Of a stretch of DNA of 64,000 nt, positions 39,963-56,925 are shown in pieces (position 1 is the first letter of the stretch; each line of letters opens with the position of its first letter). The DNA comes from Actinomycetes bacterium (GTDB taxonomy: Bacteria; Actinomycetota; Actinomycetes; JBOGEN01). A program made the position numbers and the translations under genes. The DNA lies in the NCBI GenBank assembly GCA_050743265.1, contig JBOGEN010000107.1, positions 5,612-69,611 of the forward strand. The letters are read 5' to 3'. The notes below the pieces were generated by a model. That model was not told the origin of the DNA. It worked only from the letters and a program-made list of their open reading frames with translations, and did not search any database.

Positions 39963-40538
39963 TCAGCGCTCCAGCAGGCGGTCACATCGGTCCCCGGTCG
40001 TCAGCAGGGACACGACCTCGGGCACCAGCCGCCTCCCTCGCTCCCTGACCTCCTCGGGAGTCAGTGCTGACACCGGATGCTCGGTGACGACGTAGTCGTA
40101 GTCCGGCGCGCCACGGAGCTCGGCCATCGCGTCCGCCGTGACGACGAACTCCTCGGTGCAGATCACGGCTGCCGGCAGGCCCGCCTGCTCGAACAGGATC
40201 CCGTCGGCAACCGCCGACGCACTGCACGACTCGCAGTCACCGACACCGGTGACGACGAGGTCGCACGTCCGGCGGTACCGCTCGGCGACCTCGTCGGACA
40301 CCGGCCAGGCGAAGGCAGCCTTGCTCTGGACCAGGCTGACGGAGGCCACGCCGTGCTCGGCGACGAGCAGCGTCCCGATGGCAGCCAGCAGGAGCTCGGC
40401 GTTGCGCTTCGAGTTCCCCAGGAGTCCCACACGGGCAGCGGCGAGGTCCGGACGGCGCTGCGCGAGACCGGTCCGGTACAGCTTCTCCGGACCTGTGACG
40501 CCGGTCCATCCGGTCGGGAGGACGAACTCGTCCGGCAC
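39963..40538 (-). CDS. UGSC-family protein, Cys-containing paralogue (CESC motif), copy 1
   Basis: …DLVVTGVGDCESCSASAVADGILFEQAGLPAAVICTEEF… Paralogous to 50067..50621 and to the TGA-containing 55253..55789. Confidence 0.65.
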   Translation of the reverse strand: MPDEFVLPTGWTGVTGPEKLYRTGLAQRRPDLAAARVGLLGNSKRNAELLLAAIGTLLVAEHGVASVSLVQSKAAFAWPVSDEVAERYRRTCDLVVTGVGDCESCSASAVADGILFEQAGLPAAVICTEEFVVTADAMAELRGAPDYDYVVTEHPVSALTPEEVRERGRRLVPEVVSLLTTGDRCDRLLER

Positions 40539-40597
40539 CGGGCACCCCCTCGGGTCAGCTCAGGCACGCGATACGGCGGCATGGCTTCGCGCGGCAC

Positions 40598-41719
40598 TCA
40601 GCTCTCGTGGACGATCACACCGCGGATGTTCTTGCCCTCGGTGAGGTCGCGATAGGCGTCGTTGACCTCGTCGAGCCGGTAACGGCGGGTGATCAGCTCG
40701 TCCAGCTTGAGATCGCCGGCGCGGTAGAGGTCCAGCAGCCTCGGAATGTCGAACAGGGGGTTGCAGTCGCCGAACAGCGCACCGCGGACCTGTCGCTGGT
40801 AGCTGATCAACGCGCCGGCGTGGACGTGCACCGCGCGCTCGCCGGCGTGCCCGACGGCGGTGATGACGACCTTGCCACCCTTGCCGACCACCTGGACGGC
40901 ATCGTTCACCATCTCCTCGGTGACGACCCCAGGCGTGCAGATCGCGCGATCGGCCAGCTTGCCCCACGTCGTCTCGACGACGAACTCGTGCGCCTCCTTG
41001 GCCGTGGCAAAGGTGTGGGTGGCGCCGAAGAACGTGGCCGTGTCGCGCTTGAACTCGACCGGGTCCACGACCACCACGTTCTTCGCGCCGGCGTACCTGG
41101 CCCCTTGCACCGCGTTGCTCCCCAGGCCCCCCGCGCCGTAGATCACGACGGTCTCACCGGCTCGTACGCCGGCGGAGTAGACGGCCGAGCCCCAGCCCGT
41201 CGGTACGCCACAGCCGACCAGCGAGGCGACGTCGAACGGGATGTCGTCGGCGATCGGCACGCAGGCGAACTCGGAGACCACGGCGTACTGCGAGAAGGTC
41301 CCGAGCGAGCAGAAGCCGCCGAGGTCCTCCTCACCGAGGTGGAACCGGAAGGTCCCGTCGAGGAACATGCCGGTCCCGGCGTTGAGGCCCTTGACGCACA
41401 TGTTCTGGTGTCCCGCCGAACAGGGACGGCAGGCACCACATGCGGGGATGTACGAGCAGACGATGCGGTCGCCGACCTTGACACGTCGGACGTGCGGTCC
41501 GACGGCCTCGACGACCCCGGCGCCCTCGTGCCCCCCGACGATCGGGAACCGTGCGCGGGCGACGTCCCCGGTCGTGATGTGGTGGTCGGAGTGGCAGAGG
41601 CCGGCGGCGTGGAACCGCACGCGGACCTCGTACTCCTTGGGGTCGTCGAGCTGCAGCTCCGCCAGCTCCCAGCCGATGTGGGGGCCTCGTGCGATAGCAG
41701 CTCGGGTCGTGATGCTCAT
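40598..41719 (-). CDS. Class-III-like Zn alcohol dehydrogenase of the NDMA/mycofactocin-dependent type
   Basis: GLCHSDHH…GHEGAGVV Zn motifs. Start MSITTRAAIARGP. Close paralogue of 43240..44349. Confidence 0.75.
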   Translation of the reverse strand: MSITTRAAIARGPHIGWELAELQLDDPKEYEVRVRFHAAGLCHSDHHITTGDVARARFPIVGGHEGAGVVEAVGPHVRRVKVGDRIVCSYIPACGACRPCSAGHQNMCVKGLNAGTGMFLDGTFRFHLGEEDLGGFCSLGTFSQYAVVSEFACVPIADDIPFDVASLVGCGVPTGWGSAVYSAGVRAGETVVIYGAGGLGSNAVQGARYAGAKNVVVVDPVEFKRDTATFFGATHTFATAKEAHEFVVETTWGKLADRAICTPGVVTEEMVNDAVQVVGKGGKVVITAVGHAGERAVHVHAGALISYQRQVRGALFGDCNPLFDIPRLLDLYRAGDLKLDELITRRYRLDEVNDAYRDLTEGKNIRGVIVHES

Positions 41720-41756
41720 CAGCCTCTTCTCCTCCCTCGTACGCGGGTCGCCGGCC

Positions 41757-43229
41757 TCACGCGGTGCCGCGCAAAGAGACCGTCTTGACCTGCGTGTACT
41801 CGAGGACCGCGTCTGCCCCCATCGTTCTGCCGAACCCGCTGCGCTTGTAGCCGCCGAACGGGCCGCCGATGACTCCGGCTCCGATGGCGTTGTTGACACC
41901 CACCTGACCCGCGAGCAGGCGACGACTCATCCGGACGGCCTTGCCCACGTCCGCCGTCCACACCGACGCGACCAGGCCGTAGTCCGTCCCGTTGGCGACC
42001 TCGAGGGCCTCGTCCTCGTCGTCGACCGGGATGACCGAGAGCACCGGCCCGAAGATCTCCTCCCGGGCGATGCGCATCTGCGGTGCGACCTCGTCGAAGA
42101 GCGTCGGCTCGACGAAGAGGCCGCGCTCGTACTGCTCACCGGACGGCGGCCCGCCGCCCGTGACGAGCTCCGCGCCCTCGTCACGACCGACCTGCATGTA
42201 GCCCAGGACGCGGGCGTGCTGCTGCTCGTTGATCAACGGACCCATCCGCACCTTCTCGTGCCAGGGACCGATACTCACGGTGGCCATGTGCTCGGCGAGG
42301 CGCGAGACCACCTCACGATGCACGCTGCGCTCGACCAGGACGCGTGACCCGGCGGCGCAGACCTGTCCGGTGTTCAGGGTGATGCCGGCGATCATGGCGG
42401 GCACGGCGACGTCGAGGTCGGCGTCGGCGAAGACCAGCTGCGGGGACTTGCCGCCGAGCTCCAGGTGCAGCGGGGTGAGGTTCCTGGCGCACGCCGCCAT
42501 CACCAGCTCGCCCGTCTCGGGCGATCCGGTGAAGCTCATCCGGCGGATCCGCGGATGGGCGGGGATGGCCGCGCCCGCCTCCTCGCCGTACCCGGTGACC
42601 ACGTTGATGACGCCGGGCGGGATCCCGGCCTCGAGCGCCAGCTTGGCCAGCGCGAGTGGCGTGAGGGGCGCGTCCTCGGCGGGCTTGATCACGATGGTGT
42701 TGCCGGCGGCGATGGCGGCTCCGACGTCGTTGCTGAACATCGCCCCCGGTGCGTTCCACGGGATCACGCTGCCGACCACGCCGTACGGCTCACGCAGGGT
42801 CAGACCGAGGACGTCCGGTGTGTGCGTGGGCAGGGAGAGGCCGTGCACCTTGTCCGCCTGCCCGGCGATGAACCGGAGGATCCGCGGCATGGGGGGCGGA
42901 CCCCAGTGAGGTCGGCCCACCTCCTGGGACTCGAGCTGGTCGATCTCGGCGGCGTGCTCGTCGACGAGCTGCGCCCACCGGTGGATGAGCTCGCCGCGGG
43001 TGGTGGACTTGGTGTCCCGCCACGCCGGGTACGCCTCTTCGGCCGCCAGGACGGCCCGGTCGACGTCGGCCTTGTCCCCGCGGGGAACGCGGGCCAGGAC
43101 CTCCCTGGTGGCAGGGTTGATCACGTCGATGGTCTCGTTCGTCGCAGCCGGCACCCACTCGCCACCGATGAGGTGCGCGCCTTCCACGAGCAGCGACCCG
43201 GTCGACGTCGGGGCTGTGATGGTCGTCAT
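41757..43229 (-). CDS. Aldehyde dehydrogenase-family protein
   Basis: ELGGKSP and the catalytic Cys region NTGQVCAAGSR. Confidence 0.85.
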   Translation of the reverse strand: MTTITAPTSTGSLLVEGAHLIGGEWVPAATNETIDVINPATREVLARVPRGDKADVDRAVLAAEEAYPAWRDTKSTTRGELIHRWAQLVDEHAAEIDQLESQEVGRPHWGPPPMPRILRFIAGQADKVHGLSLPTHTPDVLGLTLREPYGVVGSVIPWNAPGAMFSNDVGAAIAAGNTIVIKPAEDAPLTPLALAKLALEAGIPPGVINVVTGYGEEAGAAIPAHPRIRRMSFTGSPETGELVMAACARNLTPLHLELGGKSPQLVFADADLDVAVPAMIAGITLNTGQVCAAGSRVLVERSVHREVVSRLAEHMATVSIGPWHEKVRMGPLINEQQHARVLGYMQVGRDEGAELVTGGGPPSGEQYERGLFVEPTLFDEVAPQMRIAREEIFGPVLSVIPVDDEDEALEVANGTDYGLVASVWTADVGKAVRMSRRLLAGQVGVNNAIGAGVIGGPFGGYKRSGFGRTMGADAVLEYTQVKTVSLRGTA

Positions 43230-43239: not shown

Positions 43240-44349
43240 TCAGTGCTCGTGAATGATCACGCCGCGGACGTTCTTGCCGTCCAACATGTCCTGGTAGCCC
43301 TGGTTGACGTCCTCCAGGCGGTAGCGGCGGGTGATGAGCTCGTCCAGCTTGAGATGGCCGCTGCGGTAGAGACCGAAAAGGTGCGGCACGTCGAAGAGCG
43401 GGTTGCAGCCCCCGAAGATTGCCCCCTGGACTCGGCGCTCGTAGCCGATGAACATGCCGGGGTGCTCGTTGATCGAGCCGTTGCCCACCGCGGTGATCGT
43501 GACCTGGCCGGCCTTGCCGACGACCGCGAGGGCATCGTGGATCACCTCGTCGTGCAGGACGCCGACCGTGATGATGGCGTGGTCCGCGAGCTCGCCCCAC
43601 GTCGTCTCGACGACGAAGTCGTGGGCCTCCTTGGCCGAGGCGAAGGTGTGCGTGGCCCCGAACTCCATGGCCGACTCGCGCTTGAACTCGACCGGGTCCA
43701 CCACGACGACGTTCTTGGCCCCCGCCAGGCTGGCGCCCTGCACGGCGTTCATGCCCACGCCGCCCGAGCCGTAGGTCACCACGGTCTGGCCGGCACGGAC
43801 TCCCGCGGCGTGGACGGCGGACCCCCAGCCCGTGGGGACGCCGCACGCGACGAGAGCGGCCGAGTCGAACGGGATGTCCTTCGCGATCGGGATGCAGGAG
43901 AACTCGGAGACGACGGCGTACCGGGAGAACGTCCCGAGAACACACAGCCCGCCGAAGTCCTCGCCGTCCTGGTGGAACCTGAACGTCCCGTCCGGGAACA
44001 TCCCGGTCGAGGCGTTCTTGCCCGCATCGCACAGGTTCTGGCGTCCGGTCGAGCAGTAGCGACACGAGCCGCAGACGGGGATGAACGAGCACACCACGTG
44101 GTCGCCGGCGGACACGCGGGTCACGCCGTCCCCCACCGCATCCACCACGCCGGCACCCTCGTGCCCTCCGACCACCGGGAAGCGCATCCGCGCGTCACCC
44201 TTCTGGATGTGGTCGTCGGAGTGGCACAAGCCGGCCGCATGGAACTTGATGCGGACCTCGTTGGCCTTCGGCTCGTCGAGCTCCAGCTCGGTGATCTCCC
44301 AGGGCCGGCCAGGCTCGCGGCACACCGCGGCGAGGGTCGTCATGCTCAT
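43240..44349 (-). CDS. Class-III-like Zn alcohol dehydrogenase (NDMA/mycofactocin-dependent type), paralogue
   Basis: GLCHSDDH…GHEGAGVV. Start MSMTTLAAV. Confidence 0.75.
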   Translation of the reverse strand: MSMTTLAAVCREPGRPWEITELELDEPKANEVRIKFHAAGLCHSDDHIQKGDARMRFPVVGGHEGAGVVDAVGDGVTRVSAGDHVVCSFIPVCGSCRYCSTGRQNLCDAGKNASTGMFPDGTFRFHQDGEDFGGLCVLGTFSRYAVVSEFSCIPIAKDIPFDSAALVACGVPTGWGSAVHAAGVRAGQTVVTYGSGGVGMNAVQGASLAGAKNVVVVDPVEFKRESAMEFGATHTFASAKEAHDFVVETTWGELADHAIITVGVLHDEVIHDALAVVGKAGQVTITAVGNGSINEHPGMFIGYERRVQGAIFGGCNPLFDVPHLFGLYRSGHLKLDELITRRYRLEDVNQGYQDMLDGKNVRGVIIHEH

Positions 44350-44722
44350 GTGGATGCCCTTCCCCAAGGTGACGATGGCCAGCAGCCACGCCCACCGGCG
44401 GCGGGCGTCTGCGTCATGTCGGGCGAGGCCGCCCGTGGCCACCTCACGATCGCGTCACACCAGCACCGGGCACCACAGCCTTTTCACTTCGCGGAAGACG
44501 AACCTGCGCTCCCGCGGGCGAGGCCGAGGCGTCCGCACCGTGCTTCTGTGACGTGGAAGAGCCGGTTCCCCCGACGTCTGAGCCCTGTTAACTTCCCGGC
44601 ATTCGCAGGCGCGTCGCCAAACACGTCGTCACCTGCCCTTTGTGCGCCGCGAGACGCTGCCGGGCCCATGCGCGTGCGCGTCGCCGTTGTCGGTCCTGTT
44701 GCTCTGCTCGGAAGGATGCGTC

Positions 44723-46187: not shown

Positions 46188-47096
46188 GTGCCGGATATCG
46201 ACGTCGACAGCACCATCGCGATCGACGTGCACACGCACGTGCACCGCTCCGTCCGCGCCCCGGAGAGGCGAGGGGGCGGCAACGAGGAGATGGGCGGGTA
46301 CTTCGGGATCGGCACGATGCCGCACTACACCGTTCCCGAGCTGGCCGCCTACTACCGAGAACGCAACATGGTCTGCGTCGCCTTCACGGTCGACAACCTG
46401 ACCCCCGCCTCCGACGAGCCCGAGGTGGACAACGTCGAGATCGCGGAGCTGGCGGCGGAGCACGCGGACGTGATCATCCCGTTCGCCAGCGTCCATCCCG
46501 CACGTGGGCAGGCCGGTGCGCGTCTGGCACGGCGACTCGTGACCGACTACGGCGTGCGAGGGTTCAAGTTCCACCCGAACACGCAGGGCTTCTATCCGAA
46601 CGACCGGGTCGCGTACCCCCTCTACGAGATCATCGCCGAGTACGGACTGGTGGCCCTCTTCCACACCGGGCAGACCGGCGTCGGGGCAGGCGCGCACGGT
46701 GGCGGCGGGGTGCGGCTCAAGTACTCGAACCCGCTCCACGTCGACGACGTCGCCGTCGACTTCCCCGACATGGACATCATTCTCGCCCACCCCTCGTTCC
46801 CGTGGCAGGACGAGGCGCTCTCGATCGCCACGCACAAGCCGCGCGTCTACATCGACCTCTCCGGCTGGTCGCCGAAGTACTTCCCGCCTCAGCTGGTGCG
46901 CTACGCCAACAGCCTCCTCCGCACCAAGGTGCTCTTCGGCTCCGACTTCCCCGCCATCACCCCGGAGCGGTGGATGAGCGACTTCGAGAAGCTCGACCTC
47001 AAGCCGGAGGTGAGGCCGCTCATCATGAAGGACAACGCCGCGCGCCTCTTCGGTCTCACCAACGGCACGGCCGCATCCCCCGACAAGGAGCACTGA
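46188..47096 (+). CDS. Amidohydrolase-2-family TIM-barrel hydrolase
   Basis: GTG start 7 nt after aggaaaga. IDVHTHVH metal-binding start, …FKFHP…, and HPSFPW near the C-terminus. Confidence 0.7.
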   Translation: MPDIDVDSTIAIDVHTHVHRSVRAPERRGGGNEEMGGYFGIGTMPHYTVPELAAYYRERNMVCVAFTVDNLTPASDEPEVDNVEIAELAAEHADVIIPFASVHPARGQAGARLARRLVTDYGVRGFKFHPNTQGFYPNDRVAYPLYEIIAEYGLVALFHTGQTGVGAGAHGGGGVRLKYSNPLHVDDVAVDFPDMDIILAHPSFPWQDEALSIATHKPRVYIDLSGWSPKYFPPQLVRYANSLLRTKVLFGSDFPAITPERWMSDFEKLDLKPEVRPLIMKDNAARLFGLTNGTAASPDKEH

Positions 47097-47101
47097 GCGC
47101 C

Positions 47102-48037
47102 ATGGAGGACGTCACGGGCAAGGTCGCCTTCATCACAGGCGGCTCCAGCGGGATCGGCCGGGGAATCGCCCTGGCGTTCGCGCGAGCGGGGATGTCCGTC
47201 GTGATCAGCGGACGGCGACAGCAGCACCTGGACGAGTCGGCGGCCATGTTCGAGGCGGAGGGGCTCGACGTCCACGGAATGCGGCTCGACGTCACCGACG
47301 CGTCTGCTGTCGAGCGGGCCGCCGCGGACACGGAGCGACGGTACGGGGCCGTCCACGTGCTGGTGAACAACGCCGGCATCGGGCTCAGCGGCCCGGTGGC
47401 CCAAGCCAAGCGTGGCGACTGGGACTGGCTCATCGACGTCAACATCCGAGGCGTAGGACACGGCCTGCAGGCTTTCCTCCCCCGCATCCGCGCTCACGGG
47501 GAGGGCGGCCACATCGTGAACACCACGTCCATGGCGGGGCTGCTCCCCGTGGTCGCCGGGCTCTACAGCATGACGAAGGCCGCGGTCATCGCACTCTCGG
47601 AGACGCTGCACATCGAGCTCGCCGACGAGAACATCGGCGTCTCGGCGTACTGCCCCGGGCCGGTCATCAGCAACATCGCGTCGGGCAGAGCCGAACGGCC
47701 GGCGCAGTACGCAGACACCGGCTACGCCCCGCCTGACCCTGCGCGAGCAGCCCGCGCGCAGTCGATGCCCTACATGAGCGCCATCGAGGCCGGGGAGCGT
47801 GTGCTCCACGGGGTTCGGCGCAACGACCTGTTCATCCTCACCCATCCCGAGTTCCGGGAGGGTGTGCGGGAGCGTTTCGAGACGGTGCTCGAGGCCTTTC
47901 CCGACGAGCCGCTCGACGACGAGCGTGCCTCGACGATCACGTTCCTGACCTCGCACCAGGCCTACGCACCCGGGTCCCGGCCGGAGCCACCGCAGGGACC
48001 GTTCAGGGCACGTACGCCGGCGTCGAGTCCAGGGTGA
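47102..48037 (+). CDS. SDR-family oxidoreductase
   Basis: AFITGGSSGIGRG and YSMTKAA catalytic motif. The track ORF 46001..48037 is a read-through artefact. Confidence 0.8.
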   Translation: MEDVTGKVAFITGGSSGIGRGIALAFARAGMSVVISGRRQQHLDESAAMFEAEGLDVHGMRLDVTDASAVERAAADTERRYGAVHVLVNNAGIGLSGPVAQAKRGDWDWLIDVNIRGVGHGLQAFLPRIRAHGEGGHIVNTTSMAGLLPVVAGLYSMTKAAVIALSETLHIELADENIGVSAYCPGPVISNIASGRAERPAQYADTGYAPPDPARAARAQSMPYMSAIEAGERVLHGVRRNDLFILTHPEFREGVRERFETVLEAFPDEPLDDERASTITFLTSHQAYAPGSRPEPPQGPFRARTPASSPG

Positions 48038-48941
48038 CCAGCGGCCGCGGACCGGCCAGGTCCTCCGCCGCCGCCGGAGCGTAGGCGAAGTTCTTCGCGC
48101 GGGCGCCGCCGTCGACGACCAGGTCCATCCCGGTGATCAGCCTCGCGTAGTCGGAGCACAGCCATGCCACGGTGTGCCCGAGGTCGGTCGGGGTGCCGGT
48201 CGTGCCCATCGGCACCATGGGCGCGCGCTCACCCGTCCAGCGGCTCGGCCGGCGCCACGGCTCGTCGCCGGTTGGTCCGCCGAGGCCACCCCCGCGGCCC
48301 CGGTGCATGACGCTGCCCGTGTTGAGCCCGGCTCGTGCCCGCTCGGCGATGAGCTCGGGGTTGTCGGGCGTCGGGGCTGTCGGCGTGACGCCGTTGACCC
48401 GGATCCCGTACGGCGCCAGGTCCATCGCCGCGGCGCGTACGAAGTTGTTCACGCCGCCCTTGTGGAAGGCGTACGCGATGATGCCCGCCGATCCCGACCA
48501 CCCGTTCGACGAGGAGATGCAGACGACCGACCCTTTGGTGCCCTGTTCGGCCATCACCCGGCCGACCTGCTTGGTGTTGAGGAAGTAGCCCAGCGACGAG
48601 ACACGCACGGCACGTTCGAAGTTCTCGGCGCTCTCGTCGAGCACGCCCTTTCCGCCGAGCAGCGCCGCGTTGTTCACGAGGATGTCGATGCGCCCCCAGC
48701 GCTCCAGTACCGCGTCGACGTAGCGCTGCACCGCGCCCTCGTCCGTCACGTCGCCCGGGGCAGCCATCGCCTCCCCGCCGTTGCGCTCGATCCGGCGGAT
48801 GCACGCGGAGATCACCGAGTCGTTCACGTCGTTGCACGCCACCTTCGCGCCGTACCGCGAGAGTGCGAGCGCGACGCCGCTGCCGATGTTGGGTCCGACA
48901 CCGGTGACGAGCGCGACCATGCCGTCGAGCGAGACCTCCAC
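48003..48941 (-). CDS. SDR-family oxidoreductase
   Basis: ALVTGVGPNIGSG, NNAA, and YAFHKGG catalytic region. Confidence 0.75.
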   Translation of the reverse strand: MEVSLDGMVALVTGVGPNIGSGVALALSRYGAKVACNDVNDSVISACIRRIERNGGEAMAAPGDVTDEGAVQRYVDAVLERWGRIDILVNNAALLGGKGVLDESAENFERAVRVSSLGYFLNTKQVGRVMAEQGTKGSVVCISSSNGWSGSAGIIAYAFHKGGVNNFVRAAAMDLAPYGIRVNGVTPTAPTPDNPELIAERARAGLNTGSVMHRGRGGGLGGPTGDEPWRRPSRWTGERAPMVPMGTTGTPTDLGHTVAWLCSDYARLITGMDLVVDGGARAKNFAYAPAAAEDLAGPRPLVTLDSTPAYVP

Positions 48942-48996: not shown

Positions 48997-50070
48997 TCAG
49001 GACCCTGCCGCTGACCCTGCCTGGCTGGCCTGCTGCGACGACTCGACGCGCTCCGACCGGCCCGACCATGGCGTCCAGCCGAACGGGCGGAAGACCATGG
49101 ACATGGCGGCGTTGGCCGCGCCCGCCACGAGCAGGGTGATGGCGTGGGCGGACGGCATCATCGGGAAGCGCTGCTCATCCCCGTCCGGGCTCTCCGGTAC
49201 GTGCTCGCCTTTGCCCGCGGCGACGAGATCGGCACGGCTACGCACCGACAGCTCGTGGAGCCGCTGCTGTACGTCCGCCCGGCTGTACCCGGCTGTGCCG
49301 AGGAGCTGAGCATGTTCGGGGCCCAGGACCACACCGCCACTCGAGTGCTTGCCACCCACGTAGGCACCTGACCGGGCCAGCGTGTCGGCCAGGTCGCGCA
49401 GCACCTCCTCCGGGTCCTCCGTCTGGCGATTGTCCACGAACTCGCATGTCCTGATCAGCATGGCCGAGACCGCGTCCACGCCGCGCTCGACGCCACCGAC
49501 CACGCTGAGCGGCTCCCAGGGCGAGAGCTCCTCGTTCTCGCCCAGGCAGAGGGACCAGCGACCCGGCAGGCCCTGTGTCGACTGCTCGAGCTGTTGCGGC
49601 CGTATCCGGTACGCGTTGCGCACGATCAGTCCGAGCGCACGCGCGATCGTCGCGTTGGGACGGAAGCCGGGGCCGAACACGCCCCCGGCGCAGTTGATGC
49701 CGAGCCTCGACCTGACCGGGCCGTTGACGACGAGGAGTGGGGCCGGCCCGCTCGTGGACTGCCACGCGCCACCACCGCTCGCCCGTTCCAGGCTCAGCGC
49801 GTCCCAGGCGGCGAGGACGACGGGGAAGTACTCGGGCTTGCATCCCGCCATGACCGCGTTCGCCGCCGCCTGTGCGACGGTCACGCGACGGCGGAGGTGC
49901 TCCTGGGTGCCGATGACCTCCGACGGGTCACGGGCTGTCGTGGCGAGGAACTCCTCCACGTCGGCCTCGGTGGCCGGGACGACAGGTAGCCCGTCGGTCC
50001 AGCCCTGCTCGAAGCAGTACTCGACGGCGGCCCTGGCATCTCTGACAGGGTCGCCCAGGGATGTCGTCAT
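48997..50070 (-). CDS. Conserved hypothetical protein, partner of UGSC-family protein (copy A)
   Basis: Start overlaps the stop of the UGSC gene by 4 nt. Shares GWTDGLPVVP, AGC(K/R)PEYFPVVLAAW, LLVNGP(I/V)R(S/T)RLG(I/V)N.AG and GPEHA.LL blocks with 55786..56925. Confidence 0.55.
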   Translation of the reverse strand: MTTSLGDPVRDARAAVEYCFEQGWTDGLPVVPATEADVEEFLATTARDPSEVIGTQEHLRRRVTVAQAAANAVMAGCKPEYFPVVLAAWDALSLERASGGGAWQSTSGPAPLLVVNGPVRSRLGINCAGGVFGPGFRPNATIARALGLIVRNAYRIRPQQLEQSTQGLPGRWSLCLGENEELSPWEPLSVVGGVERGVDAVSAMLIRTCEFVDNRQTEDPEEVLRDLADTLARSGAYVGGKHSSGGVVLGPEHAQLLGTAGYSRADVQQRLHELSVRSRADLVAAGKGEHVPESPDGDEQRFPMMPSAHAITLLVAGAANAAMSMVFRPFGWTPWSGRSERVESSQQASQAGSAAGS

Positions 50071-50621
50071 GGGCGCGCCGCCGCAGCCGCGTCGGTCAGC
50101 AAGGCCACGATCTGGGGCACGACCTTCTCGGCGCGTGCCCGGATGCCGTCACGGTTCAGGCTGGCCACCGGATGGTCCGTGGTGACGTACCTGTAGCCGG
50201 GTGCGCCTTGCACCTCGGCCATGGCGTCGGCGCTGACCGTGAACGCGTCGGTGCAGATGACGACGGAGGGCACTCCGGACTGTTCGAGCAGGAGACCGTC
50301 GGCGACCGCCGACGCGCTGCACGAGCCGCAGTCGCCGACGCCGGTGACCACGATGTCGCAGGCCGCGAGCTCGTCGAGCATCTCTGCCGGCACGGGGTGG
50401 GTGATGCTCAGCTTCTTCCGCGCGAGCACGGGCTTCACGCCGTACTGCTCCCGCATCAGTGAGGCCACGTCCTCGAGGAACTGCTCCGCGTTGCGCTTCG
50501 TGTTGGCCAGCAACCCGAGACTGAGCCCCTCCAGGTCTGCCGGCCGTGGAGCAAGGCCAGCCCGTGCCCGGTCCGGAGCGACATCCGAGCCCACGGTGGG
50601 GTCGACGATGCTGTCGAACAC
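50067..50621 (-). CDS. UGSC-family protein, Cys-containing paralogue (CGSC motif), copy 2
   Basis: …DIVVTGVGDCGSCSASAVADGLLLEQSGVPSVVICTDAF…. Confidence 0.65.
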   Translation of the reverse strand: MFDSIVDPTVGSDVAPDRARAGLAPRPADLEGLSLGLLANTKRNAEQFLEDVASLMREQYGVKPVLARKKLSITHPVPAEMLDELAACDIVVTGVGDCGSCSASAVADGLLLEQSGVPSVVICTDAFTVSADAMAEVQGAPGYRYVTTDHPVASLNRDGIRARAEKVVPQIVALLTDAAAAARP

Positions 50622-50779: not shown

Positions 50780-52225
50780 TCACCCGATGTTGACCCAGAC
50801 ACCCTTGGTCTCGGTGTAGGCGTCGAGCGCCTCACCAGTCATCTCGCGTCCCCAGCCGCTGGACTTGAAGCCACCCCACGGTGCGGCGGGGTCCAGCCTC
50901 GGCAGGGTGTTGACGAACACCTCACCGGCCCGGATCTGGTGGGCCATCCGGTGGCCACGAGCGACGTCGGACGTCCAGACGGAGGCAACCAGACCGAAGT
51001 CCGTGTCGTTGGCCCAGCCCACCAGCTCGTCCGGCTCGTCGTAGGTGATGACGGGCAGTACCGGCCCGAAGACCTCGTCCCGTGCGATCTGCATGCCGTG
51101 CTCGACGGATGCGACGAGCGTCGGCTCGAAGAAGTAGCCGGCGGCAAGGTCACCCTCGCCGCGCTTGCCTCCGACGAGGACCTTGGCGCCCTGCTCGACT
51201 CCAGACGTGACGAAGCCCTCGACCTTGTCGCGGTGCTCAGCCGAGATGAGCGGCCCGAGCTGGGTGCCCGGCGACGTGCCAGGTCCCATCGTGATGCTCG
51301 ACATGGCCGCGCCGAGCTTCTCGGTGAACTCGTCCGCCCGGCTGCGGTCGACGTAGAAGCGGCTGTACGCCGCGCAGGCCTGGCCACTGTTCACCAGCCC
51401 GCCGAGCATGTTGCCGCTGACGGCAGCGTCGATGTCGGCGTCAGCCATGACGATGCTGGGCGCCTTGCCGCCGAGCTCGAGCGAGACGCGCTTGAGGTTG
51501 CCTGCCGAGGCCGCGACGATCGACCGGCCGACCTCCGTCGAACCGGTGAACGACACCTTGTCGACCCCGGGATGCTCCACCAGCCGCTTGCCCACCTCCG
51601 GGCCACCGGTGAGGAGGTTCACCACGCCGGCAGGGACCCCAGCCTCCAGGCAGAGCTCTGCCAGGCGTGCGGTGCTCAGCGGCGTCTGCTCCGCGGGCTT
51701 GAGGATCACCGTGTTCCCCGCGGCCAGGGCCGGGGCGATCTTCCACACGGCGATGGTGAGCGGGAAGTTCCACGGGGTGATGAGCGCACAGACACCGACC
51801 GGCTCGCGCCTGGTGTAGTGCAGCATCCCTGGAACGGAGACCGGACTGGTGACACCGGTGATCTTGGTGCACCACCCCGCGTAGTAGCGCAGCATCTCCG
51901 CGGCGCCGCTCATGCTGCCGCGGGCGAAGCCGACGGACTGTCCCTGGTCCCTGCTCTCCAGCTCCGCCAGCTCGTCCGCGTTCTCCTCGACGAGGTCGGC
52001 GATCTTCCACAGCAGACGGGCCCGGGCGGCCGGCATCATCCCCGACCAGGCCGGATCGACGAAGGCGCGGGACGCTGCGTCCACCGCTGCGTCGACGTCT
52101 GCCGCGGTGGCCTCCACCGCGGTGCCGAGTACCTCTCCGGTCGCGGGATCCACCGTCTCGAACGTGTTCGCCGCCGTCCCGGCAGTCCATTCCCCGGCGA
52201 TCAGCAGCTGGACGTGCGTGGCCAT
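50780..52225 (-). CDS. Aldehyde dehydrogenase-family protein
   Basis: ELGGKAP and catalytic region NSGQACAAYSR. Confidence 0.85.
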   Translation of the reverse strand: MATHVQLLIAGEWTAGTAANTFETVDPATGEVLGTAVEATAADVDAAVDAASRAFVDPAWSGMMPAARARLLWKIADLVEENADELAELESRDQGQSVGFARGSMSGAAEMLRYYAGWCTKITGVTSPVSVPGMLHYTRREPVGVCALITPWNFPLTIAVWKIAPALAAGNTVILKPAEQTPLSTARLAELCLEAGVPAGVVNLLTGGPEVGKRLVEHPGVDKVSFTGSTEVGRSIVAASAGNLKRVSLELGGKAPSIVMADADIDAAVSGNMLGGLVNSGQACAAYSRFYVDRSRADEFTEKLGAAMSSITMGPGTSPGTQLGPLISAEHRDKVEGFVTSGVEQGAKVLVGGKRGEGDLAAGYFFEPTLVASVEHGMQIARDEVFGPVLPVITYDEPDELVGWANDTDFGLVASVWTSDVARGHRMAHQIRAGEVFVNTLPRLDPAAPWGGFKSSGWGREMTGEALDAYTETKGVWVNIG

Positions 52226-52251: not shown

Positions 52252-53367
52252 TCAGTCGAAGCGGATCACACCGCGGAGCGTGCGGTGCTGGCGCATGTCC
52301 TCGTAACCGTCGTTGATCTGCACCAACGAGTAGGTGCGGGTGATGAGCTCATCGAGCAGCAAGTCGCCCTGCCGGTACAGGCTGAGGAGCCGCGGGATGT
52401 CGTACCGGGGGTTCGCGTTTCCGAACAGACAGCCCACGACGCGCTTCTGGTAGGCGGTGAGCTCGAACATGGGGAGCGTCACCTGATCGTCCGACACGTT
52501 GGCGAGGGACGTCAGCGCGACGGTTCCGAGCTTGCCGACCAGCGACAGTGCCTCCCCGATGAGCTCGCCGGTGGCCACGCCGACCGTGATCAGCGCAGCG
52601 TTGGCCATCTGACCGCGGGTCAGGTCCACGAGTGCCGCGCGTGCCTCGGTGACGTCGACGAAGGCGTGGGTGGCACCGAGCTGCCTTGCCTGGTCGCGAT
52701 TGAACTCCGACGGGTCCACCACGACGATCGTCGTGGCGCCGGCCATTCTGGCTCCCTGCACCGCGTTGGCTCCGACGCCACCGACCCCGAGGACGACGAC
52801 GGTGTCACCGGCTCGCGTCTCGGCGCCGTACACCGCCGTGCCCCATCCGGTGGTGACCCCGCAACCGACCAGCGCCGCCCTGTCGAGCGGGATGTCGTCG
52901 TCGATCTTGATGACCGAGCTCTCGCGCGTGACCGTGTACGGAGAGAACGTGCCCAACACGCACATCAGCCGTGCGTCCTCGCCGCCGACGTGGTGTCGCG
53001 AACTGCCGTCACGCTGAAGCCCGACGGTCAGGTCGGCTCCTTCGTCACAGAGGTTCTGGTTCCCGGAGGCGCAGGACGGGCACCGCCCGCAGGCCGGGAC
53101 GAAGCTGAGCACCACATGGTCACCCTCGGACACGCTGCGCACGTTCGTGCCGACGCTCTCCACGACGCCGGCCCCCTCGTGACCGCCGATGACGGGCAGG
53201 CCTTCCATGGGGAGATCACCGAGCCGGACGTGCTCGTCGGAATGGCACAACCCGGAGGCGCTCAGCCGGACCATCACCTCGCCGTCACGAGGGTCGTCGA
53301 GCTCGATCTCCTCGATCTGCCAGTCCTTGCCGTACTCGCGGAGCACAGCAGCCTGAGTCCTCACCAC
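52252..53367 (-). CDS. Zn-dependent alcohol dehydrogenase (class-III-like)
   Basis: GLCHSDEH…GHEGAGVV. Confidence 0.8.
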   Translation of the reverse strand: MVRTQAAVLREYGKDWQIEEIELDDPRDGEVMVRLSASGLCHSDEHVRLGDLPMEGLPVIGGHEGAGVVESVGTNVRSVSEGDHVVLSFVPACGRCPSCASGNQNLCDEGADLTVGLQRDGSSRHHVGGEDARLMCVLGTFSPYTVTRESSVIKIDDDIPLDRAALVGCGVTTGWGTAVYGAETRAGDTVVVLGVGGVGANAVQGARMAGATTIVVVDPSEFNRDQARQLGATHAFVDVTEARAALVDLTRGQMANAALITVGVATGELIGEALSLVGKLGTVALTSLANVSDDQVTLPMFELTAYQKRVVGCLFGNANPRYDIPRLLSLYRQGDLLLDELITRTYSLVQINDGYEDMRQHRTLRGVIRFD

Positions 53368-53568: not shown

Positions 53569-55026
53569 TCACCGCCGGCGCGGCCGGGCGAACGGCAACC
53601 GCACCGTCGGGAGGAGCGCCCGCGGGCGGCGTGCCCGCACGGCGCTGACGATGACGCCGGTGCCGTACACGGCGTCCTCCGCGAGACGCAGTGCCGCATA
53701 GCGGACCGGGTCGACGTCCGGGCGATGGCGCACGTACTCCAGGGCGACGGGAGCGAGCATGCTTACGGCGGCGGCTGCTGCCACGCGGGAGCGTCCGGCA
53801 GCCGCCAGGGCCACCCATCCCACGGGCCACCACACGCGTCGCAACCCGTGACCGACCGCAGCGGCATCTGCCACGAGACCCTGTCCGACGACCACGCCCG
53901 CGAGCCAGGGGGGCGCGTCCGCCCAGCGGAGACGGCCGCCCAGCGTCCCGACCGCCGTCGCCGCGACGAGCGCAGCGAGCCGGGGTCGCGTCGGCGCCAG
54001 GAGCGCCACCGCCACGTTCCAGGCCGAGACCCGCACCGGAGCGAGGCGACCGGGGTGGCGCCGGTCCAGGTCGGCGGCGGACGTGCCGTACTCGAAGCGA
54101 CGCCGGGCCCAGTCCACCGGATCGAGCCGCGCCTCGTGGTGGACGACGACCGACGGCTCATAGCGCGCGAGCCATCCCGCGTCGGCCAGGCGCCACACCA
54201 GGTCGACGTCCTCTCCCACACGCATCGATGGCTCGAACCCCTGGCCGGCGAGTGCGTCACGACGTACGAGAAGCGCCGCCGACGGCAGGAAGCCGAGCGG
54301 TGCACCGCGTCTGACCAGTTCCGGACGCCCCCCCATGTCGAGCGCCGACCGTGCGTCCTCGTGACGTGCCAGAAGGGATACGCCTGTGACACGGGGCCGC
54401 ACGCGGGGGGCGACGAGGCCGACGCGCGGATCGTCGAAGTGCGCGACGAGTCCCTCGAGCCAGCCGGGCGAGACGGAGCAGTCGGAGTCCAGGAAGGCCA
54501 CGAGGGGCGCAGCGGTCGCCAGCACCCCGGCGTTGCGCGCCGCGCCCGGGCCCTGGTTCACGTCGAGGCGTACGACGCGAGCCCCGTGCCTCTCGGCCAC
54601 ACGCCGGACGGCCACCTCGTCGCGGGACCCGTCGTCGACGACCACCACCGGTGCGCCGGCGAGGCGACGCAGGCAGGCCTCGAGCAGGCCCACCCGGTCG
54701 TGCGCCGGGACGACGACGACCACCTCACCAGCCAGGGAGCGGAGGTCGACGGCCGGATGCACCACTCCTCGCTGCACGAGAAGGTCAGCCGTCGCGCCCT
54801 CGATGGCACCGTCGGGCACCACACCCGATGCCCCGGCAGCATGGACGCGGCGTACGAACGGCCGCGCACGCGCCGACACGCGGACGAGGCCCCACGGTGC
54901 ACCGCCGGTGACGACGGCGCCGTCGTTCCACAGCCGGGCCCGGCCGTCCCACGCGACGCGTGTCCCCGGGCGGAGGCCGGCGCGTACCTCCGGCGCGTCT
55001 ACGCCGGAGGAGGCCATGCCGGCCAA
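53569..55026 (-). CDS. mftF: Mycofactocin system glycosyltransferase MftF (GT2-like)
   Basis: About 485 aa. GT2 core VVVVDDGSRD…AFLDSDC (DxD-like), C-terminal hydrophobic region, and length/architecture typical of MftF. Lies about 26 kb from mftABCDE. Confidence 0.65.
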   Translation of the reverse strand: MAGMASSGVDAPEVRAGLRPGTRVAWDGRARLWNDGAVVTGGAPWGLVRVSARARPFVRRVHAAGASGVVPDGAIEGATADLLVQRGVVHPAVDLRSLAGEVVVVVPAHDRVGLLEACLRRLAGAPVVVVDDGSRDEVAVRRVAERHGARVVRLDVNQGPGAARNAGVLATAAPLVAFLDSDCSVSPGWLEGLVAHFDDPRVGLVAPRVRPRVTGVSLLARHEDARSALDMGGRPELVRRGAPLGFLPSAALLVRRDALAGQGFEPSMRVGEDVDLVWRLADAGWLARYEPSVVVHHEARLDPVDWARRRFEYGTSAADLDRRHPGRLAPVRVSAWNVAVALLAPTRPRLAALVAATAVGTLGGRLRWADAPPWLAGVVVGQGLVADAAAVGHGLRRVWWPVGWVALAAAGRSRVAAAAAVSMLAPVALEYVRHRPDVDPVRYAALRLAEDAVYGTGVIVSAVRARRPRALLPTVRLPFARPRRR

Positions 55027-55252
55027 CCCTAGCTGCAGGGGGCCTCGCCGCTGAGCAGCGAGCAGCCGGGTACGTCAGATGACTTACCGGGGTTGGCCGC
55101 GTGCGGCTCGCCGGGTCCGTCATCTGCGCGTGGACGTGCTCGGACCCGGTCGCGGACACTCCAGGAGACCGCGCCCGGCTCGGTGTCGTGGCTGACGACA
55201 GCTGCTCGTCGTCCACGGCGCTGAGCCCTCACCACCGGAAGGGCCCGCTGAC

Positions 55253-55789
55253 ATGGCGTTCGAGAACCTGATCGACCCCACCGGAGGCCTCGACCTCGAC
55301 GCCGACACCACCCTGACGCGCAGGCCGGCGACTCTGCGCGGCACGACGCTCGGGCTGCTGGAGAACACCAAGCCCAACGCGGCCGTCCTCCTGCACGAGC
55401 TCGGCGAGATCCTGACGCGCCGGTACGGGATCAGCGAGGTGCTCTCGTACTCCAAGACGTACTTCGGCACCCCGGCTACCGCGTCCCAGGTGGAGCTGAT
55501 AGCTCGGGAGTGCGATCTTGTGGTCACGGGGGTGGGCGATTGAGGCTCCTGCAGCGCGGCCAGTCTGGCCGACGGGATCCTGCTGGAGCGAGGCGGCGTT
55601 CCAGCGGTGAGCATCTGCACGGAGGCGTTTCGCACTCCCGCCGACGCCATGGCCAAGGCGTACGGGTTCCCGGGGTTCCAGTACGTGACGGTGCCGCACC
55701 CGCTGGCGAGTCTGACCCACGGTGAGGTGAGAGAAAGGGTGCACGAGATGCTGCCAGGCGTCCTCCAGGTCCTGGGTGTGGAGCTGTGA
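55253..55789 (+). CDS. UGSC-family selenoprotein (predicted). In-frame TGA at 55541..55543 is read as selenocysteine (motif D-U-G-S-C).
   Basis: ORFs 55253..55543 and 55607..55789 are in the same frame, separated only by the TGA. Translation …LVVTGVGD-U-GSCSAASLADGILLERGGVPAVSICTEAF… aligns residue-for-residue with the paralogues VTGVGDCGSCSASAVADGLLLEQSGVPSVVICTDAF and VTGVGDCESCSASAVADGILFEQAGLPAAVICTEEF. The TGA occupies the first Cys position. Joined length is 178 aa, against 184 and 191 aa for the paralogues. Confidence 0.6.
55544..55580 (+). other. Candidate bacterial SECIS-like hairpin downstream of the in-frame UGA
   Basis: Perfect 6-bp stem cggcca / uggccg (55557-55562 and 55566-55571) with loop GUC. 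It starts 14 nt after the UGA. Confidence 0.3.
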
Positions 55790-56925
55790 GGCATCCCTCC
55801 GCGGGTGGGACGTCGCTGGTCGAGCCGGCGGGCCTGGACCCCGTAGCGGCCCGTGACGTGCTCGAGCGCTACTACGACGAGGGCTGGACGGACGGCCTTC
55901 CCGTGGTGCCGTGCTCGGAGAGCCTGCTCGCCGAGTTCCTCGGCCAGGTCTCTCGGGACCCCGAGGACGTCGTGTTCTCCATGCCTCACCTCAACCGGAC
56001 GTGCTCGGTCCGCCTCGCCGCCGTGAACGCGGCCATGGCGGGGTGCCGGCCGGAGTACTTCCCGGTGGTCCTCGCCGCCTGGGAGGCGCTCGACGCCGAG
56101 GGCTACGCCGGCAAGGGGATCTGGCAGAGCACGACGGGCAACGCGACCCTGCTCCTCGTCAACGGTCCGATCAGGACGCGCCTGGGCGTCAACGGAGCGG
56201 GCAACGTCTTCGGGTCCGGCTTCCGTGCGAACGCCACGATCGGCCGGGCGATCCGCCTGACGGCCATGAACGTCTTCGGACTGCGTCCCCACCAGCTGGA
56301 CCAGGCGACCCAGGGGACGCCGGCGAAGTACACCTGCTGCATCGCCGAGAACGAGGAGCAGAGCCCCTGGGCACCGCTGCACGAGGAGCTCGGGTTCGCC
56401 CGGCACGAGAGCACCGTCACGGCGATGATGATGCGCTCCACCGTGCACGTGGAGGCGCGCCATACCGTCGTCGGCGACCAGCTCCTCAACGATGTGGCGA
56501 ACACGGTCGCGCGGACGGGTGCCCTCGTCCACGAGACCGTCAGCGTGTGTCTCGTCCTGGGGCCGGAGCACGCTCACCTGCTCGCCAGGGGCGGCCTGAC
56601 CCGGCGGGACGTCCAAGAGGCCGTCTTCGACAAGGCCGTGACCACGCGGCGGTCGCTCGACGCCGCCGGAAAGGCGGGGGTCTCGAGAAGCACGCGCTGG
56701 CGCCTCCCGAGCGAGCACCCCGACGCGGTCTCGGACGGTGAGGCCAACGACATCCGAGAGGCCAACGACATCCGAGAGGCCAACGACATCCGCGCGCTCA
56801 ACTCTCCCGAGGCCGTCGTCGTGGTCGTCGCGGGAGCGTTCAACGCCGGGGTCTCCACGGTCGTCGAGACCTTCGGTCCCCGCGGCGGGCGCCCCGCCAT
56901 CTCTCGAGTGAAGGAGCGACAGTGA
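55786..56925 (+). CDS. Conserved hypothetical protein, partner of UGSC-family protein (copy B)
   Basis: GTGA overlap with the selenoprotein gene. Paralogue of 48997..50070 (same conserved blocks). Contains an in-frame 18-bp x3 repeat. Confidence 0.55.
   Translation: MRHPSAGGTSLVEPAGLDPVAARDVLERYYDEGWTDGLPVVPCSESLLAEFLGQVSRDPEDVVFSMPHLNRTCSVRLAAVNAAMAGCRPEYFPVVLAAWEALDAEGYAGKGIWQSTTGNATLLLVNGPIRTRLGVNGAGNVFGSGFRANATIGRAIRLTAMNVFGLRPHQLDQATQGTPAKYTCCIAENEEQSPWAPLHEELGFARHESTVTAMMMRSTVHVEARHTVVGDQLLNDVANTVARTGALVHETVSVCLVLGPEHAHLLARGGLTRRDVQEAVFDKAVTTRRSLDAAGKAGVSRSTRWRLPSEHPDAVSDGEANDIREANDIREANDIRALNSPEAVVVVVAGAFNAGVSTVVETFGPRGGRPAISRVKERQ
56740..56793 (+). repeat. In-frame 18-bp tandem repeat x3 (gaggccaacgacatccga) encoding (EANDIR)3
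   Basis: …GEANDIREANDIREANDIRALN… in the partner protein. Absent from the paralogue 48997..50070. Confidence 0.7.

Follow-up and report, generated by a model that had tools for sequence, protein, structure and literature searches.

UGSC proteins and the larger protein encoded next to them constitute one self-contained, conserved functional unit. Of 80 species-representative loci, about 75 have UGSC directly beside this partner; they belong to at least ten phyla, with hosts in Actinomycetota, Chloroflexota, Acidobacteriota, Rokubacteria, Burkholderiales, SAR324, Rhodospirillaceae, Rhizobiaceae, Pseudomonadales, Binatia and Spirochaetaceae, and the order of the two genes is inverted between phyla. 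We put at roughly 50% the probability that UGSC serves a novel cysteine-dependent catabolic enzyme as its dedicated selenol/thiol redoxin and has been recruited into mycofactocin alcohol-oxidation operons in the 64-kb stretch of actinomycete DNA analysed here (the window). The original prediction, made from the letters of the window, had taken UGSC for an accessory of dehydrogenases or mycofactocin; what it observed was confirmed, while its interpretation as a whole was partly supported, since what is conserved, and in many proteins covalent, is the link between UGSC and its partner and not one between UGSC and a dehydrogenase.

The family was described as the ‘UGSC-containing protein’ by Zhang & Gladyshev in 2008 and is known as NF041046/PF24696, without an assigned function (PMC2398784). 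All three paralogues recognised in the window, with CESC, CGSC and UGSC motifs, had the translations initially proposed and are members: they matched NF041046, the ‘UGSC family (seleno)protein’ model, over its full length and above its curated cut-off of 125 bits, and PF24696 with E values of about 1e-56 to 1e-63 (Table 1). Each carries U/C-G-S-C after a β-strand with an invariant Asp ahead, copy 1 as a CESC variant. The 2008 description does not include actinobacterial Cys forms in mycofactocin operons. A tblastn search of the whole window returned exactly three UGSC genes and exactly two partner genes.

Copy 3 is a true selenocysteine (UGA) form, whose SECIS element shows covariation. Its HMM match continues through the TGA (profile positions 2-146 of 147), and the SECIS hairpin, which sits 16 nt after the in-frame UGA, is in register with the equivalent hairpin of 41 other Sec-type UGSC genes. 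In the resulting alignment of 42 genes, 98% of cells were paired, compared with 18-51% in slid controls, and four of the six pairs showed compensatory changes. No Sec machinery genes were found within the window. Sec is used by 43 of 73 UGSC genes, and GOS data contain 255 Sec against 21 Cys forms of the protein (PMC2398784).

Table 1. Features of the UGSC/partner modules and their setting in the window.
Feature	Position	Strand	Evidence
Generic Zn-ADH	38845..39951	-	PF08240 + PF00107; TIGR03989 only 119.5 bits
UGSC copy 1	39963..40538	-	Cys form, GDCESCS; NF041046 151.6 bits; PF24696 E 8.7e-56
NDMA-dependent (mycofactocin-type) Zn-ADH, upstream of UGSC copy 1	40598..41899	-	TIGR03989 511.8 bits, match from residue 65; true start probably near 41710
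Generic aldehyde dehydrogenase	41757..43229	-	PF00171 E 9e-161; under every NCBIfam equivalog cut-off
NDMA-dependent Zn-ADH	43240..44442	-	TIGR03989 514.2 bits; true start probably near 44340
SDR downstream of partner 1	48003..48941	-	PF13561 + PF00106
Partner 1, 357 aa	48997..50070	-	Start overlaps UGSC copy 2 stop by 4 nt (ATGA)
UGSC copy 2	50067..50621	-	Cys form, GDCGSCS; NF041046 167.6 bits; PF24696 E 5.6e-63
Generic aldehyde dehydrogenase, upstream of UGSC copy 2	50780..52225	-	PF00171 E 4e-176
NDMA-dependent Zn-ADH heading cassette 2	52252..53367	-	TIGR03989 547.6 bits
MftF glycosyltransferase (GT2), divergent from UGSC copy 3	53569..55026	-	TIGR03965 362.4 bits, cut-off 280
UGSC copy 3	55253..55789	+	Selenocysteine form, GD-U-GSCS; NF041046 164.5 bits
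Sec codon TGA (55541-55543) and bacterial SECIS hairpin (stem 55557-55562/55566-55571, loop GUC)	55541..55571	+	Covariation alignment
Partner 2, 379 aa	55786..56925	+	Overlaps UGSC copy 3 stop by 4 nt (GTGA)
Third component, 87-aa NifU-like CxxC protein (…CAECLVP…)	56922..57185	+	GTGA overlap with partner 2 stop
FAD oxidoreductase (PF12831) and IlvD/Edd-family dehydratase	57270..60327	+	Conserved downstream of PART2-type modules

The partner represents a fold without counterpart in the PDB and belongs to no described family, and the first reading of the window had likewise been unable to place it in one: partners 1 and 2, which are 51% identical across 281 aa, had no match in Pfam or NCBIfam, and PDB searches by sequence and by fold were likewise negative. 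Homologues of partner 2 make up a second actinobacterial clade. The partner is enzyme-like and roughly 350 aa long. It carries a near-invariant set of polar residues (Asp25, Asn70, Cys76, Thr105, Asn115, Asn125, Arg136, Asn138, Arg143, Glu177 and His252) plus Cys174; across 495 partner domains, Arg143 and Glu177 are invariant, and Cys76 is kept in 486, His252 in 464 and Cys174 in 455. Cys76 is located at a helix N-terminus, just ahead of helix 78-92.

Fusions provided a further view of the unit. Among 150 cluster representatives there were 10 full UGSC::partner proteins, 20 that gene callers had cut at the UGA and 3 with the reverse order, and many more fusions occur outside that set. A ‘UGSC/Unknown_1’ fusion was reported in 2008 (PMC2398784), in which Unknown_1 very probably corresponds to the present partner. 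The AF2 model of the fusion P0343 reached a pLDDT of 90.5 and a pTM of 0.92 despite a low-confidence linker, values that imply a fixed interface between the modelled domains. UGSC is a flavodoxin-like α/β protein, in which the Sec/Cys of U/C-G-S-C occupies a strand-to-helix N-cap (in the P0343 model, that of helix 99-114), and it does not show the thioredoxin fold (βαβαββα) carrying CxxC. Many fusions read C-G-T-S, without the second Cys, which indicates that the first Cys/Sec is essential and that the resolving thiol may sit elsewhere.

In other fusions the place of UGSC on the partner is taken by a different redox domain: an AhpC-TSA/Redoxin thioredoxin-fold domain with CATC or CPTC (P0305, P0348, P0351, P0373), the catalytic chain of ferredoxin:thioredoxin reductase (FTR; P0380), the C-terminal end of a thioredoxin-reductase-like pyridine-nucleotide-disulfide oxidoreductase (P0389) or a NifU-like domain (P0255, P0241). 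Dedicated redoxin-enzyme pairs and fusions are known for MsrA/B with thioredoxin, peroxiredoxin with glutaredoxin and arsenate reductase with Trx/Grx. The module resembles them in coupling or fusing a small CxxC/UxxC protein to a cysteine-dependent enzyme, here a predicted one, and in the interchangeability, seen as fusions, of differing redoxin types on the catalytic domain. It differs from them in that this domain has neither a known family nor a solved fold and UGSC is not of the thioredoxin fold. A thiol/selenol relay by UGSC, one of the redox roles proposed at the outset, is the best reading.

The selenoproteins B of D-proline and glycine reductases carry UxxC (PrdB) and UxxCxxC (GrdB) motifs, and like PrdA/PrdB and GrdB/GrdE the module joins such a selenoprotein to a larger partner with an essential Cys. 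A PrdB/PrdA- or GrdB/GrdE-like enzyme would reductively cleave its substrate, which would be activated by the partner, possibly self-cleaved at Gly75-Cys76 to yield a pyruvoyl group, and attacked at carbon by the Sec of UGSC, with the motif Cys resolving the selenoether. UGSC motifs indeed read U-x-x-C, in many non-actinobacterial members U-G-S-C-S-x-C; Gly-Cys was invariant in our conservation survey of the partner; copy 2 gave one marginal match to PrdB TIGR04483 that aligned the motif region (E 0.0055); and Sec is strongly favoured over Cys, in a survey that also lists the PrdB motif as UxxC (PMC2398784). We nevertheless regard this enzyme type as quite unlikely. None of 89 partners matched any PF09338-type family at E ≤5, UGSC hosts are aerobic, the resolving Cys is missing from many fusions, position 76 is Ala in some partners, and thioredoxin-fold, FTR and thioredoxin-reductase-like domains can stand in for UGSC, which argues for generic disulfide chemistry. 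As a family assignment, UGSC as a GrdB/PrdB selenoprotein B was rejected, with 16 bits for TIGR04483 (cut-off 300) and no match to PF07355 (GRDB) among 31 UGSC sequences with the threshold relaxed to E ≤5.

The setting of the modules in the window is that of the mycofactocin system (MftA-F and the TIGR03989/TIGR03971 nicotinoprotein dehydrogenases), as it is in about half of the actinobacterial loci. The proposed mycofactocin-type cassettes were substantiated by three ADHs above the TIGR03989 cut-off of 440 bits, by MftF and by mftC, mftD, mftE and a mycofactocin-coupled SDR at 23.0-27.1 kb. Generic enzymes are encoded by both ALDH genes and by the ADH gene at 38845-39951, as no mycofactocin-associated family model exceeded its cut-off, and neither ALDH is of the nicotinoprotein type. 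By synteny this ADH is a conserved part of the cassette, which in relatives lies downstream of the UGSC/partner genes. Orthologues of the cassette 2 ADH flank PART2-type pairs (L005, L028, L034, L036), an orthologue of the SDR comes after the partner (L001, L003, L012, L016), and the FAD oxidoreductase/IlvD-Edd order is repeated in L028, L031, L034 and L029.

The linkage to NDMA-dependent ADHs is real but lineage-restricted. In Actinomycetota, an NDMA-ADH lies within 10 kb in 24 of about 44 loci, directly adjacent in about 19, in both paralogue lineages and several orders, and MftF is near four loci besides the window (L006, L011, L024, L036). This recurrence, the presence of all three window copies in operons with TIGR03989 ADHs and the exclusive occurrence of TIGR03989 in mycofactocin genomes (PMC3023750) favour the original idea that UGSC, with its partner, serves mycofactocin-dependent nicotinoprotein dehydrogenases as a redox accessory, for instance by linking the thiol pool electronically to mycofactocinol or enzyme-bound NADH, or by handling the cofactor. 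Outside Actinomycetota, in contrast, 0 of 34 loci had an NDMA-ADH and their 110 neighbours shared no dominant family; fusion proteins are located in unrelated catabolic islands without mft genes. Mycofactocin is reported to be mainly actinobacterial, with sporadic occurrence in Firmicutes, Chloroflexi and Deltaproteobacteria (PMC3023750), whereas UGSC proteins abound in the plankton of oceans and fresh waters (PMC2398784). The pair extends beyond mycofactocin taxa and is absent from the mycofactocin-linked families of phylogenetic profiling (Haft 2011, PMC3023750). The evidence named in advance as counting against the accessory role, homologues of the pair mostly in mycofactocin-less genomes and far from dehydrogenases, was thus obtained in part, at the level of gene neighbourhoods. 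Because the invariant coupling is to the partner and not to the ADH, we consider such a role unlikely.

A small NifU-like CxxC protein, absent from the original prediction, is an addition to the UGSC/partner unit in many actinobacteria. In at least 24 loci this domain comes after the partner, and P0241, P0224 and P0255 are fusions of it with the partner or with UGSC::partner. Its CxxC is invariant in 21 of 21 members; PF01106 matched 3 of these 21 (best E 3e-5), and the copy in the window was unmatched. Together with the fusion to the 4Fe-4S catalytic chain of FTR and the IlvD/Edd Fe-S dehydratase downstream of cassette 3, this component would suit a hydro-lyase-like partner that depends on UGSC and the NifU-like protein to assemble or mend its iron-sulfur cluster or metal site, an arrangement that we hold to be highly improbable.

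A protective or repair module, keeping reduced those cysteines of neighbouring catabolic enzymes that are sensitive to oxidation or to aldehydes (e.g. the ALDH catalytic Cys) or removing aldehyde-thiol adducts, would agree with the thiol/selenol redox proteins throughout the module, with its location here beside aldehyde-producing and aldehyde-consuming enzymes and with its presence in many unrelated catabolic islands. However, the large invariant Arg/Asn-rich set of the partner is typical of a small-molecule active site, ALDH is absent from most contexts outside Actinomycetota, and the occurrence of several divergent paralogues in one genome points to specificity for substrates, so that protection appears very improbable. 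The paralogous modules of a genome lie in different catabolic islands, which fits a substrate-diversifying enzyme family.

In the redoxin-enzyme reading that we prefer, the partner would engage a small catabolic substrate, probably carboxylated, through Cys76, either as nucleophile or as redox centre, and each cycle would leave the partner oxidised or carrying a covalent load. Attack on the spent partner by the Sec/Cys of UGSC would give a selenenylsulfide or disulfide, to be resolved by the second motif Cys or, where this is missing, by Cys174, and UGSC would then be re-reduced by cellular thiol systems, possibly via the NifU-like CxxC protein. Three copies of the module have entered operons of ALDHs and mycofactocin-dependent ADHs in this genome, where it most likely works on a pathway intermediate or product and not on mycofactocin itself. 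Against this mechanism stand the nine Cys76-less domains (8 Ala and 1 Gly of 495, the Trx-fused P0351 among them) and the tandem partner-partner proteins, which lack Cys174; it also leaves the strong, operon-level NDMA-ADH linkage in Actinomycetota mechanistically unexplained. More tentatively, UGSC and partner may be an unrecognised two-subunit (or fused) selenocysteine-dependent enzyme class with a new catalytic fold, using thiol/selenol chemistry to drive a reductive or group-transfer step in aerobic catabolism on small organic acids, whether derived from alcohols or not, and wired in Actinomycetota into mycofactocin-dependent alcohol oxidation. If so, few selenoenzymes of aquatic bacteria would be more abundant. 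Recognition of UGSC as half of a widespread two-part module makes a selenoprotein family unexplained since 2008 testable in culturable bacteria.

Copy 1 is an orphan in this genome, separated from the next gene by just 11 nt; if it works at all, it does so without an adjoining partner, which also counts against the preferred mechanism. This absence is limited to this genome, as orthologous cassettes (L001, L010, L015, L024) have a partner between UGSC and the 38845-39951-type ADH. The CESC motif is not unique to copy 1 either, and in L073 it is found in a UGSC protein whose gene adjoins a partner.

The three small ORFs of the window (G+C ~70%) had been assigned to the UGSC family, and their translations agreed: all scored above the curated NF041046 cut-off and matched PF24696 end to end. 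The three copies show a pairwise identity of 44-49% and have in common a GD[C/U]xSCS sequence together with N-x-K-x-N and HP motifs. A tblastn search over the window returned exactly the three UGSC genes and two partner genes (encoding ~350-aa proteins beside UGSC) of the original prediction, together with three NDMA-type ADHs and one MftF, and both partners indeed overlap the stop of their own UGSC gene by 4 nt. Since 2007-2008, UGSC has counted among the most abundant prokaryotic selenoprotein families, and it still has no assigned function (PMC2398784; a 2026 review, PMC13188914). PMC2398784 reports 255 Sec sequences of UGSC in the GOS data, where it is the top selenoprotein family of freshwater samples, and ranks it as a top selenoprotein in marine and freshwater plankton. 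Our literature search found neither a published function for UGSC nor a published link to mycofactocin.

When the window proteins were mapped by tblastn onto 80 genome loci, UGSC adjoined the partner in ~75 of them, with UGSC as the first gene in Actinomycetota and the partner as the first in Dehalococcoidia, Proteobacteria, Binatia and Spirochaetaceae. The best 150 of 5903 partner cluster representatives included 10 full UGSC::partner fusions, 20 such fusions which gene callers had truncated at the Sec UGA, 3 partner::UGSC fusions and 8 tandem partner-partner proteins. When one fusion was used as query, dozens of further ones were retrieved, all with PF24696, one of them carrying the NCBI name "UGSC family (seleno)protein". 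Many UGSC::partner fusions have C-G-T-S, so that the first Cys/Sec alone is retained. UGSC and the partner are one module, and their near-obligate pairing across phyla is new. The "UGSC/Unknown_1" fusion mentioned by Zhang & Gladyshev 2008 (PMC2398784) is very probably UGSC::partner; the family and, probably, this fusion are already in the literature, and the function is not. Two modules also occur within 20 kb of each other in loci L001, L005, L022, L054 and L055, and a metagenomic contig (L089, 2302-7239) carries two divergent Sec-type UGSC::partner fusions with a 4HBT thioesterase and an MFS transporter between them.

A generic ADH lies only 11 nt downstream of UGSC copy 1 (39951-39963). 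In four other genomes (L001, 10652-12970; L010; L015; L024), the orthologous cassette has a partner gene between UGSC and ADH, from which we conclude that copy 1 has lost its partner in this genome or in this assembly. The idea that the CESC form is unique and that copy 1 is decaying was ruled out by locus L073, where CESC adjoins a partner. We likewise discarded the idea of a deletion scar between UGSC1 and the ADH, since the 12-nt "repeat" at 39940-39966 is a weak TRF call that covers a normal RBS and gene start.

Copy 3 contains an in-frame TGA (55541-55543), across which the HMM match continues, and a 6-bp hairpin with a GUC loop 16 bases 3′ of the TGA. In an alignment of 42 Sec-type UGSC genes that starts at the TGA, 98% of the cells of the hairpin were paired, compared with 18-51% in slid controls, and four of the six pairs carried compensatory changes (GC↔UA 18:18, GC↔CG 22:20). 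The single-sequence fold z-score of the region was -0.11, which is not significant, so that significance comes from the comparative analysis only. This covariation identifies the hairpin as a genuine bacterial SECIS and copy 3 as a true selenoprotein gene. Scans for Rfam families, tRNAs, promoters and terminators gave nothing informative. In Geodermatophilus ruber DSM 45317 (L035, 9777-9839), the UGSC gene has TAG for TGA at the Sec position and an intact SECIS hairpin, which may reflect a pseudogene, a sequencing error or a stranger situation.

The two partners of the window are 51% identical, and P0001, a hypothetical protein of an "Actinomycetes bacterium" MAG, matches partner 1 at 100% identity. 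As predicted, they could not be placed in a known family: Pfam and NCBIfam scans were empty, even for the full set of 89 aligned members with E ≤5, and a profile search of PDB sequences found no relative. The family comprises 5903 representatives of 50%-identity clusters (E ≤1e-3), and the GTDB species-representative genomes contain at least 597 stretches confirmed to match it. Its members are currently labelled "hypothetical protein" or, wrongly, "Thioredoxin"; it deserves a Pfam/NCBIfam model. Across 495 domains, the near-invariant residues are Asp25, Gly26, Pro28, Asn70, Gly75, Cys76 (486/495), Thr105, Asn115, Asn125, Arg136, Asn138, Arg143, Thr164, Cys174 (455/495), Glu177, Pro183, Trp184, Glu251 and His252. 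Such a set would be typical of an enzyme whose ligand is small, polar and probably anionic. Cys76 is located immediately before helix 78-92, the usual place for a reactive cysteine. Both the unrepresented fold and the invariant residue set are new. A perfect 18-nt tandem repeat (×2.9; 56740-56792, + strand) encodes EANDIR three times in the variable C-terminal loop of partner 2 and looks like a recent in-frame expansion. A further paralogue, 66% identical to partner 2 (P0167; ACRDYU_10170, on an 80.8-kb contig), apparently belongs to the same MAG as the window, given the ACRDYU locus-tag prefix and the "Actinomycetes bacterium" label common with P0001; if so, the genome has three or more partners and, probably, four or more UGSC genes.

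In several polypeptides without UGSC, the partner is fused to other redox domains. Four of them (P0305, P0348, P0351, P0373) join it to an AhpC-TSA/Redoxin thioredoxin-fold domain with CATC or CPTC, through a linker that keeps a conserved PGCGS(R/K) motif reminiscent, at the sequence level, of the UGSC active-site loop. In P0380 the fused domain is the ferredoxin:thioredoxin reductase catalytic chain, and in P0389 the C-terminal end of a pyridine-nucleotide-disulfide oxidoreductase. These fusions suggest that the partner travels with thiol-redox modules and that other disulfide-reducing domains can replace UGSC on it. In P0351, Ala replaces the partner Cys76.

The original two-part picture overlooked an 87-aa CxxC ORF downstream of partner 2. 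In at least 24 loci, with both paralogue types represented, its domain lies downstream of the partner; P0241 and P0224 carry it as a C-terminal fusion to the partner, and P0255 at the N-terminus of a UGSC::partner protein. Of 21 members, 3 match PF01106 (NifU-like). We infer that this NifU-like CxxC protein is a third, facultative component of the module; like the interchangeable redoxin fusions, it is new. That the module is instead an Fe-S-centred enzyme we consider highly improbable. Cassette 2 of the window is without the 87-aa gene, and its closest relatives (L012, L016) have one between partner and SDR. A 15-nt tandem repeat, CCGAGCACTGAGACA (×4.2, 95% matches; 57175-57237, + strand), begins at the 87-aa ORF's stop and covers most of the interval to the FAD oxidoreductase gene.

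The best-supported reading, to which we give a probability of about 0.5, is that the partner is a novel cysteine-dependent enzyme and UGSC the selenol/thiol redoxin dedicated to it. It is supported by the substitution of generic disulfide-reducing domains for UGSC, by the position of both the UGSC Sec/Cys and the partner Cys76 at helix N-caps, and by the constant retention of the first motif residue. A PrdAB/GrdBE-like reductive-cleavage enzyme, with a pyruvoyl formed from Cys76, is rather improbable: UGSC resembles PrdB in its motif and gave one marginal NCBIfam match to it, but this match was not reproduced in 31 UGSC sequences. Nor was it reproduced in the PDB, and we rejected UGSC as a PrdB/GrdB homologue, leaving an analogy only. 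The presence of several divergent paralogues in one genome, spread over different catabolic operons, is more in keeping with an enzyme family that diversifies in substrate than with a housekeeping redox buffer; thiol repair is a very unlikely role. With UGSC as the redoxin of the partner, the module would, in this genome, probably act on an intermediate or product of ADH/ALDH pathways. The finding is a kind of redoxin-enzyme module, and the probability that it represents a categorically new class of selenoenzymes is substantial, though less than even.

Features of the mycofactocin island and of the UGSC/partner modules in the window
Feature	Position	Strand	Remarks
Mycofactocin-coupled SDR	23014-24003	-	
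mftE	23813-24760	-	creatininase family
mftD	within 24574-26181	-	
mftC	25823-27070	-	
Possible mftB	27057-27401	-	without Pfam match
Generic ADH	38845-39951		
UGSC copy 1	39963-40538	-	
NDMA-dependent ADH	40598-41899		TIGR03989, 512-548 bits for the three ADHs, cut-off 440
NDMA-dependent ADH	43240-44442		TIGR03989, as above
Generic SDR	48003-48941		
Partner 1	48997-50070	-	
UGSC copy 2	50067-50621	-	
NDMA-dependent ADH	52252-53367		TIGR03989, as above
MftF glycosyltransferase	53569-55026	-	362 bits, cut-off 280
UGSC copy 3	55253-55789	+	Sec form
Partner 2	55786-56925	+	
87-aa CxxC ORF	56922-57185	+	C-A-E-C-L-V-P; overlaps partner 2 stop by 4 nt

The NDMA-dependent ADHs, MftF and the upstream mftC, mftD and mftE with their coupled SDR identify ~23 to 55 kb as a mycofactocin island, in line with the setting first proposed. 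Of the dehydrogenase cassettes, the three TIGR03989 ADHs and the MftF stood, but both ALDHs and the ADH beside copy 1 proved generic. Partner 2 is followed by the 87-aa ORF, a PF12831 FAD oxidoreductase and an IlvD/Edd-family dehydratase. mftF is detached by ~26 kb from mftC/D/E, with transporters and dehydrogenase cassettes between. In the ~0.9 kb between amidohydrolase and SDR (47096-48003) no gene passes the GC3 filter, and the sole long ORF there (46901-47956, - strand) has no Pfam match.

In Actinomycetota (including Solirubrobacterales), a TIGR03989-like ADH was found within 10 kb in 24 of ~44 loci, ~19 of them directly adjacent, and in both paralogue lineages. By our estimate the chance of such an ADH in a 20-kb window is ~1%, so the association is real, with a count inflated by shared synteny. 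Modules related to partner 1 are accompanied by ADHs of the 40598/43240 type, ALDH, generic Zn-ADH and amidohydrolase_2; those related to partner 2 by the 52252-type ADH, the small CxxC gene, FAD oxidoreductase and IlvD; MftF lies near the module in L006, L011, L024 and L036. Of these, L024 is from Microbacterium marinilacus YM11-607 and has the pair beside NDMA-ADHs. Outside Actinomycetota, none of 34 loci had an NDMA-ADH, clustering of 3788 ORFs gave no shared neighbour, and a Pfam census of 110 neighbours revealed no dominant family (MFS 5, SDR 4, luciferase-like 3). On long metagenomic contigs, the fusion proteins reside in varied catabolic islands with TctC/PrpD/aconitase, amidase, hydantoinase, acyl-CoA/thiolase/MaoC, FAA-hydrolase + Zn-ADH + NMT1-ABC, or LigAB. 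Mycofactocin occurs in many Actinobacteria and sporadically elsewhere, and TIGR03989 is exclusive to mycofactocin genomes (PMC3023750). The lack of NDMA-ADHs outside Actinomycetota, the varied islands and the plankton abundance, set against a mainly actinobacterial mycofactocin, argue that the module is older and broader than this association, and a mycofactocin-linked relay, as initially proposed, appears unlikely.

Also new is that Cys forms have been recruited repeatedly into the mycofactocin/NDMA-ADH operons of actinobacteria that can be cultured. Together with the near-obligate partner and the replaceability of UGSC by other disulfide-reducing domains, this makes UGSC tractable, as Cys forms are expressible without Sec machinery and the operon context restricts the substrate search. 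The species with Cys-only UGSC genes in such defined operons for alcohols and aldehydes are Amycolatopsis sacchari DSM 44468, A. pigmentata, Geodermatophilus sabuli, Microbacterium marinilacus, Streptomyces mexicanus and Plantactinospora soyae.
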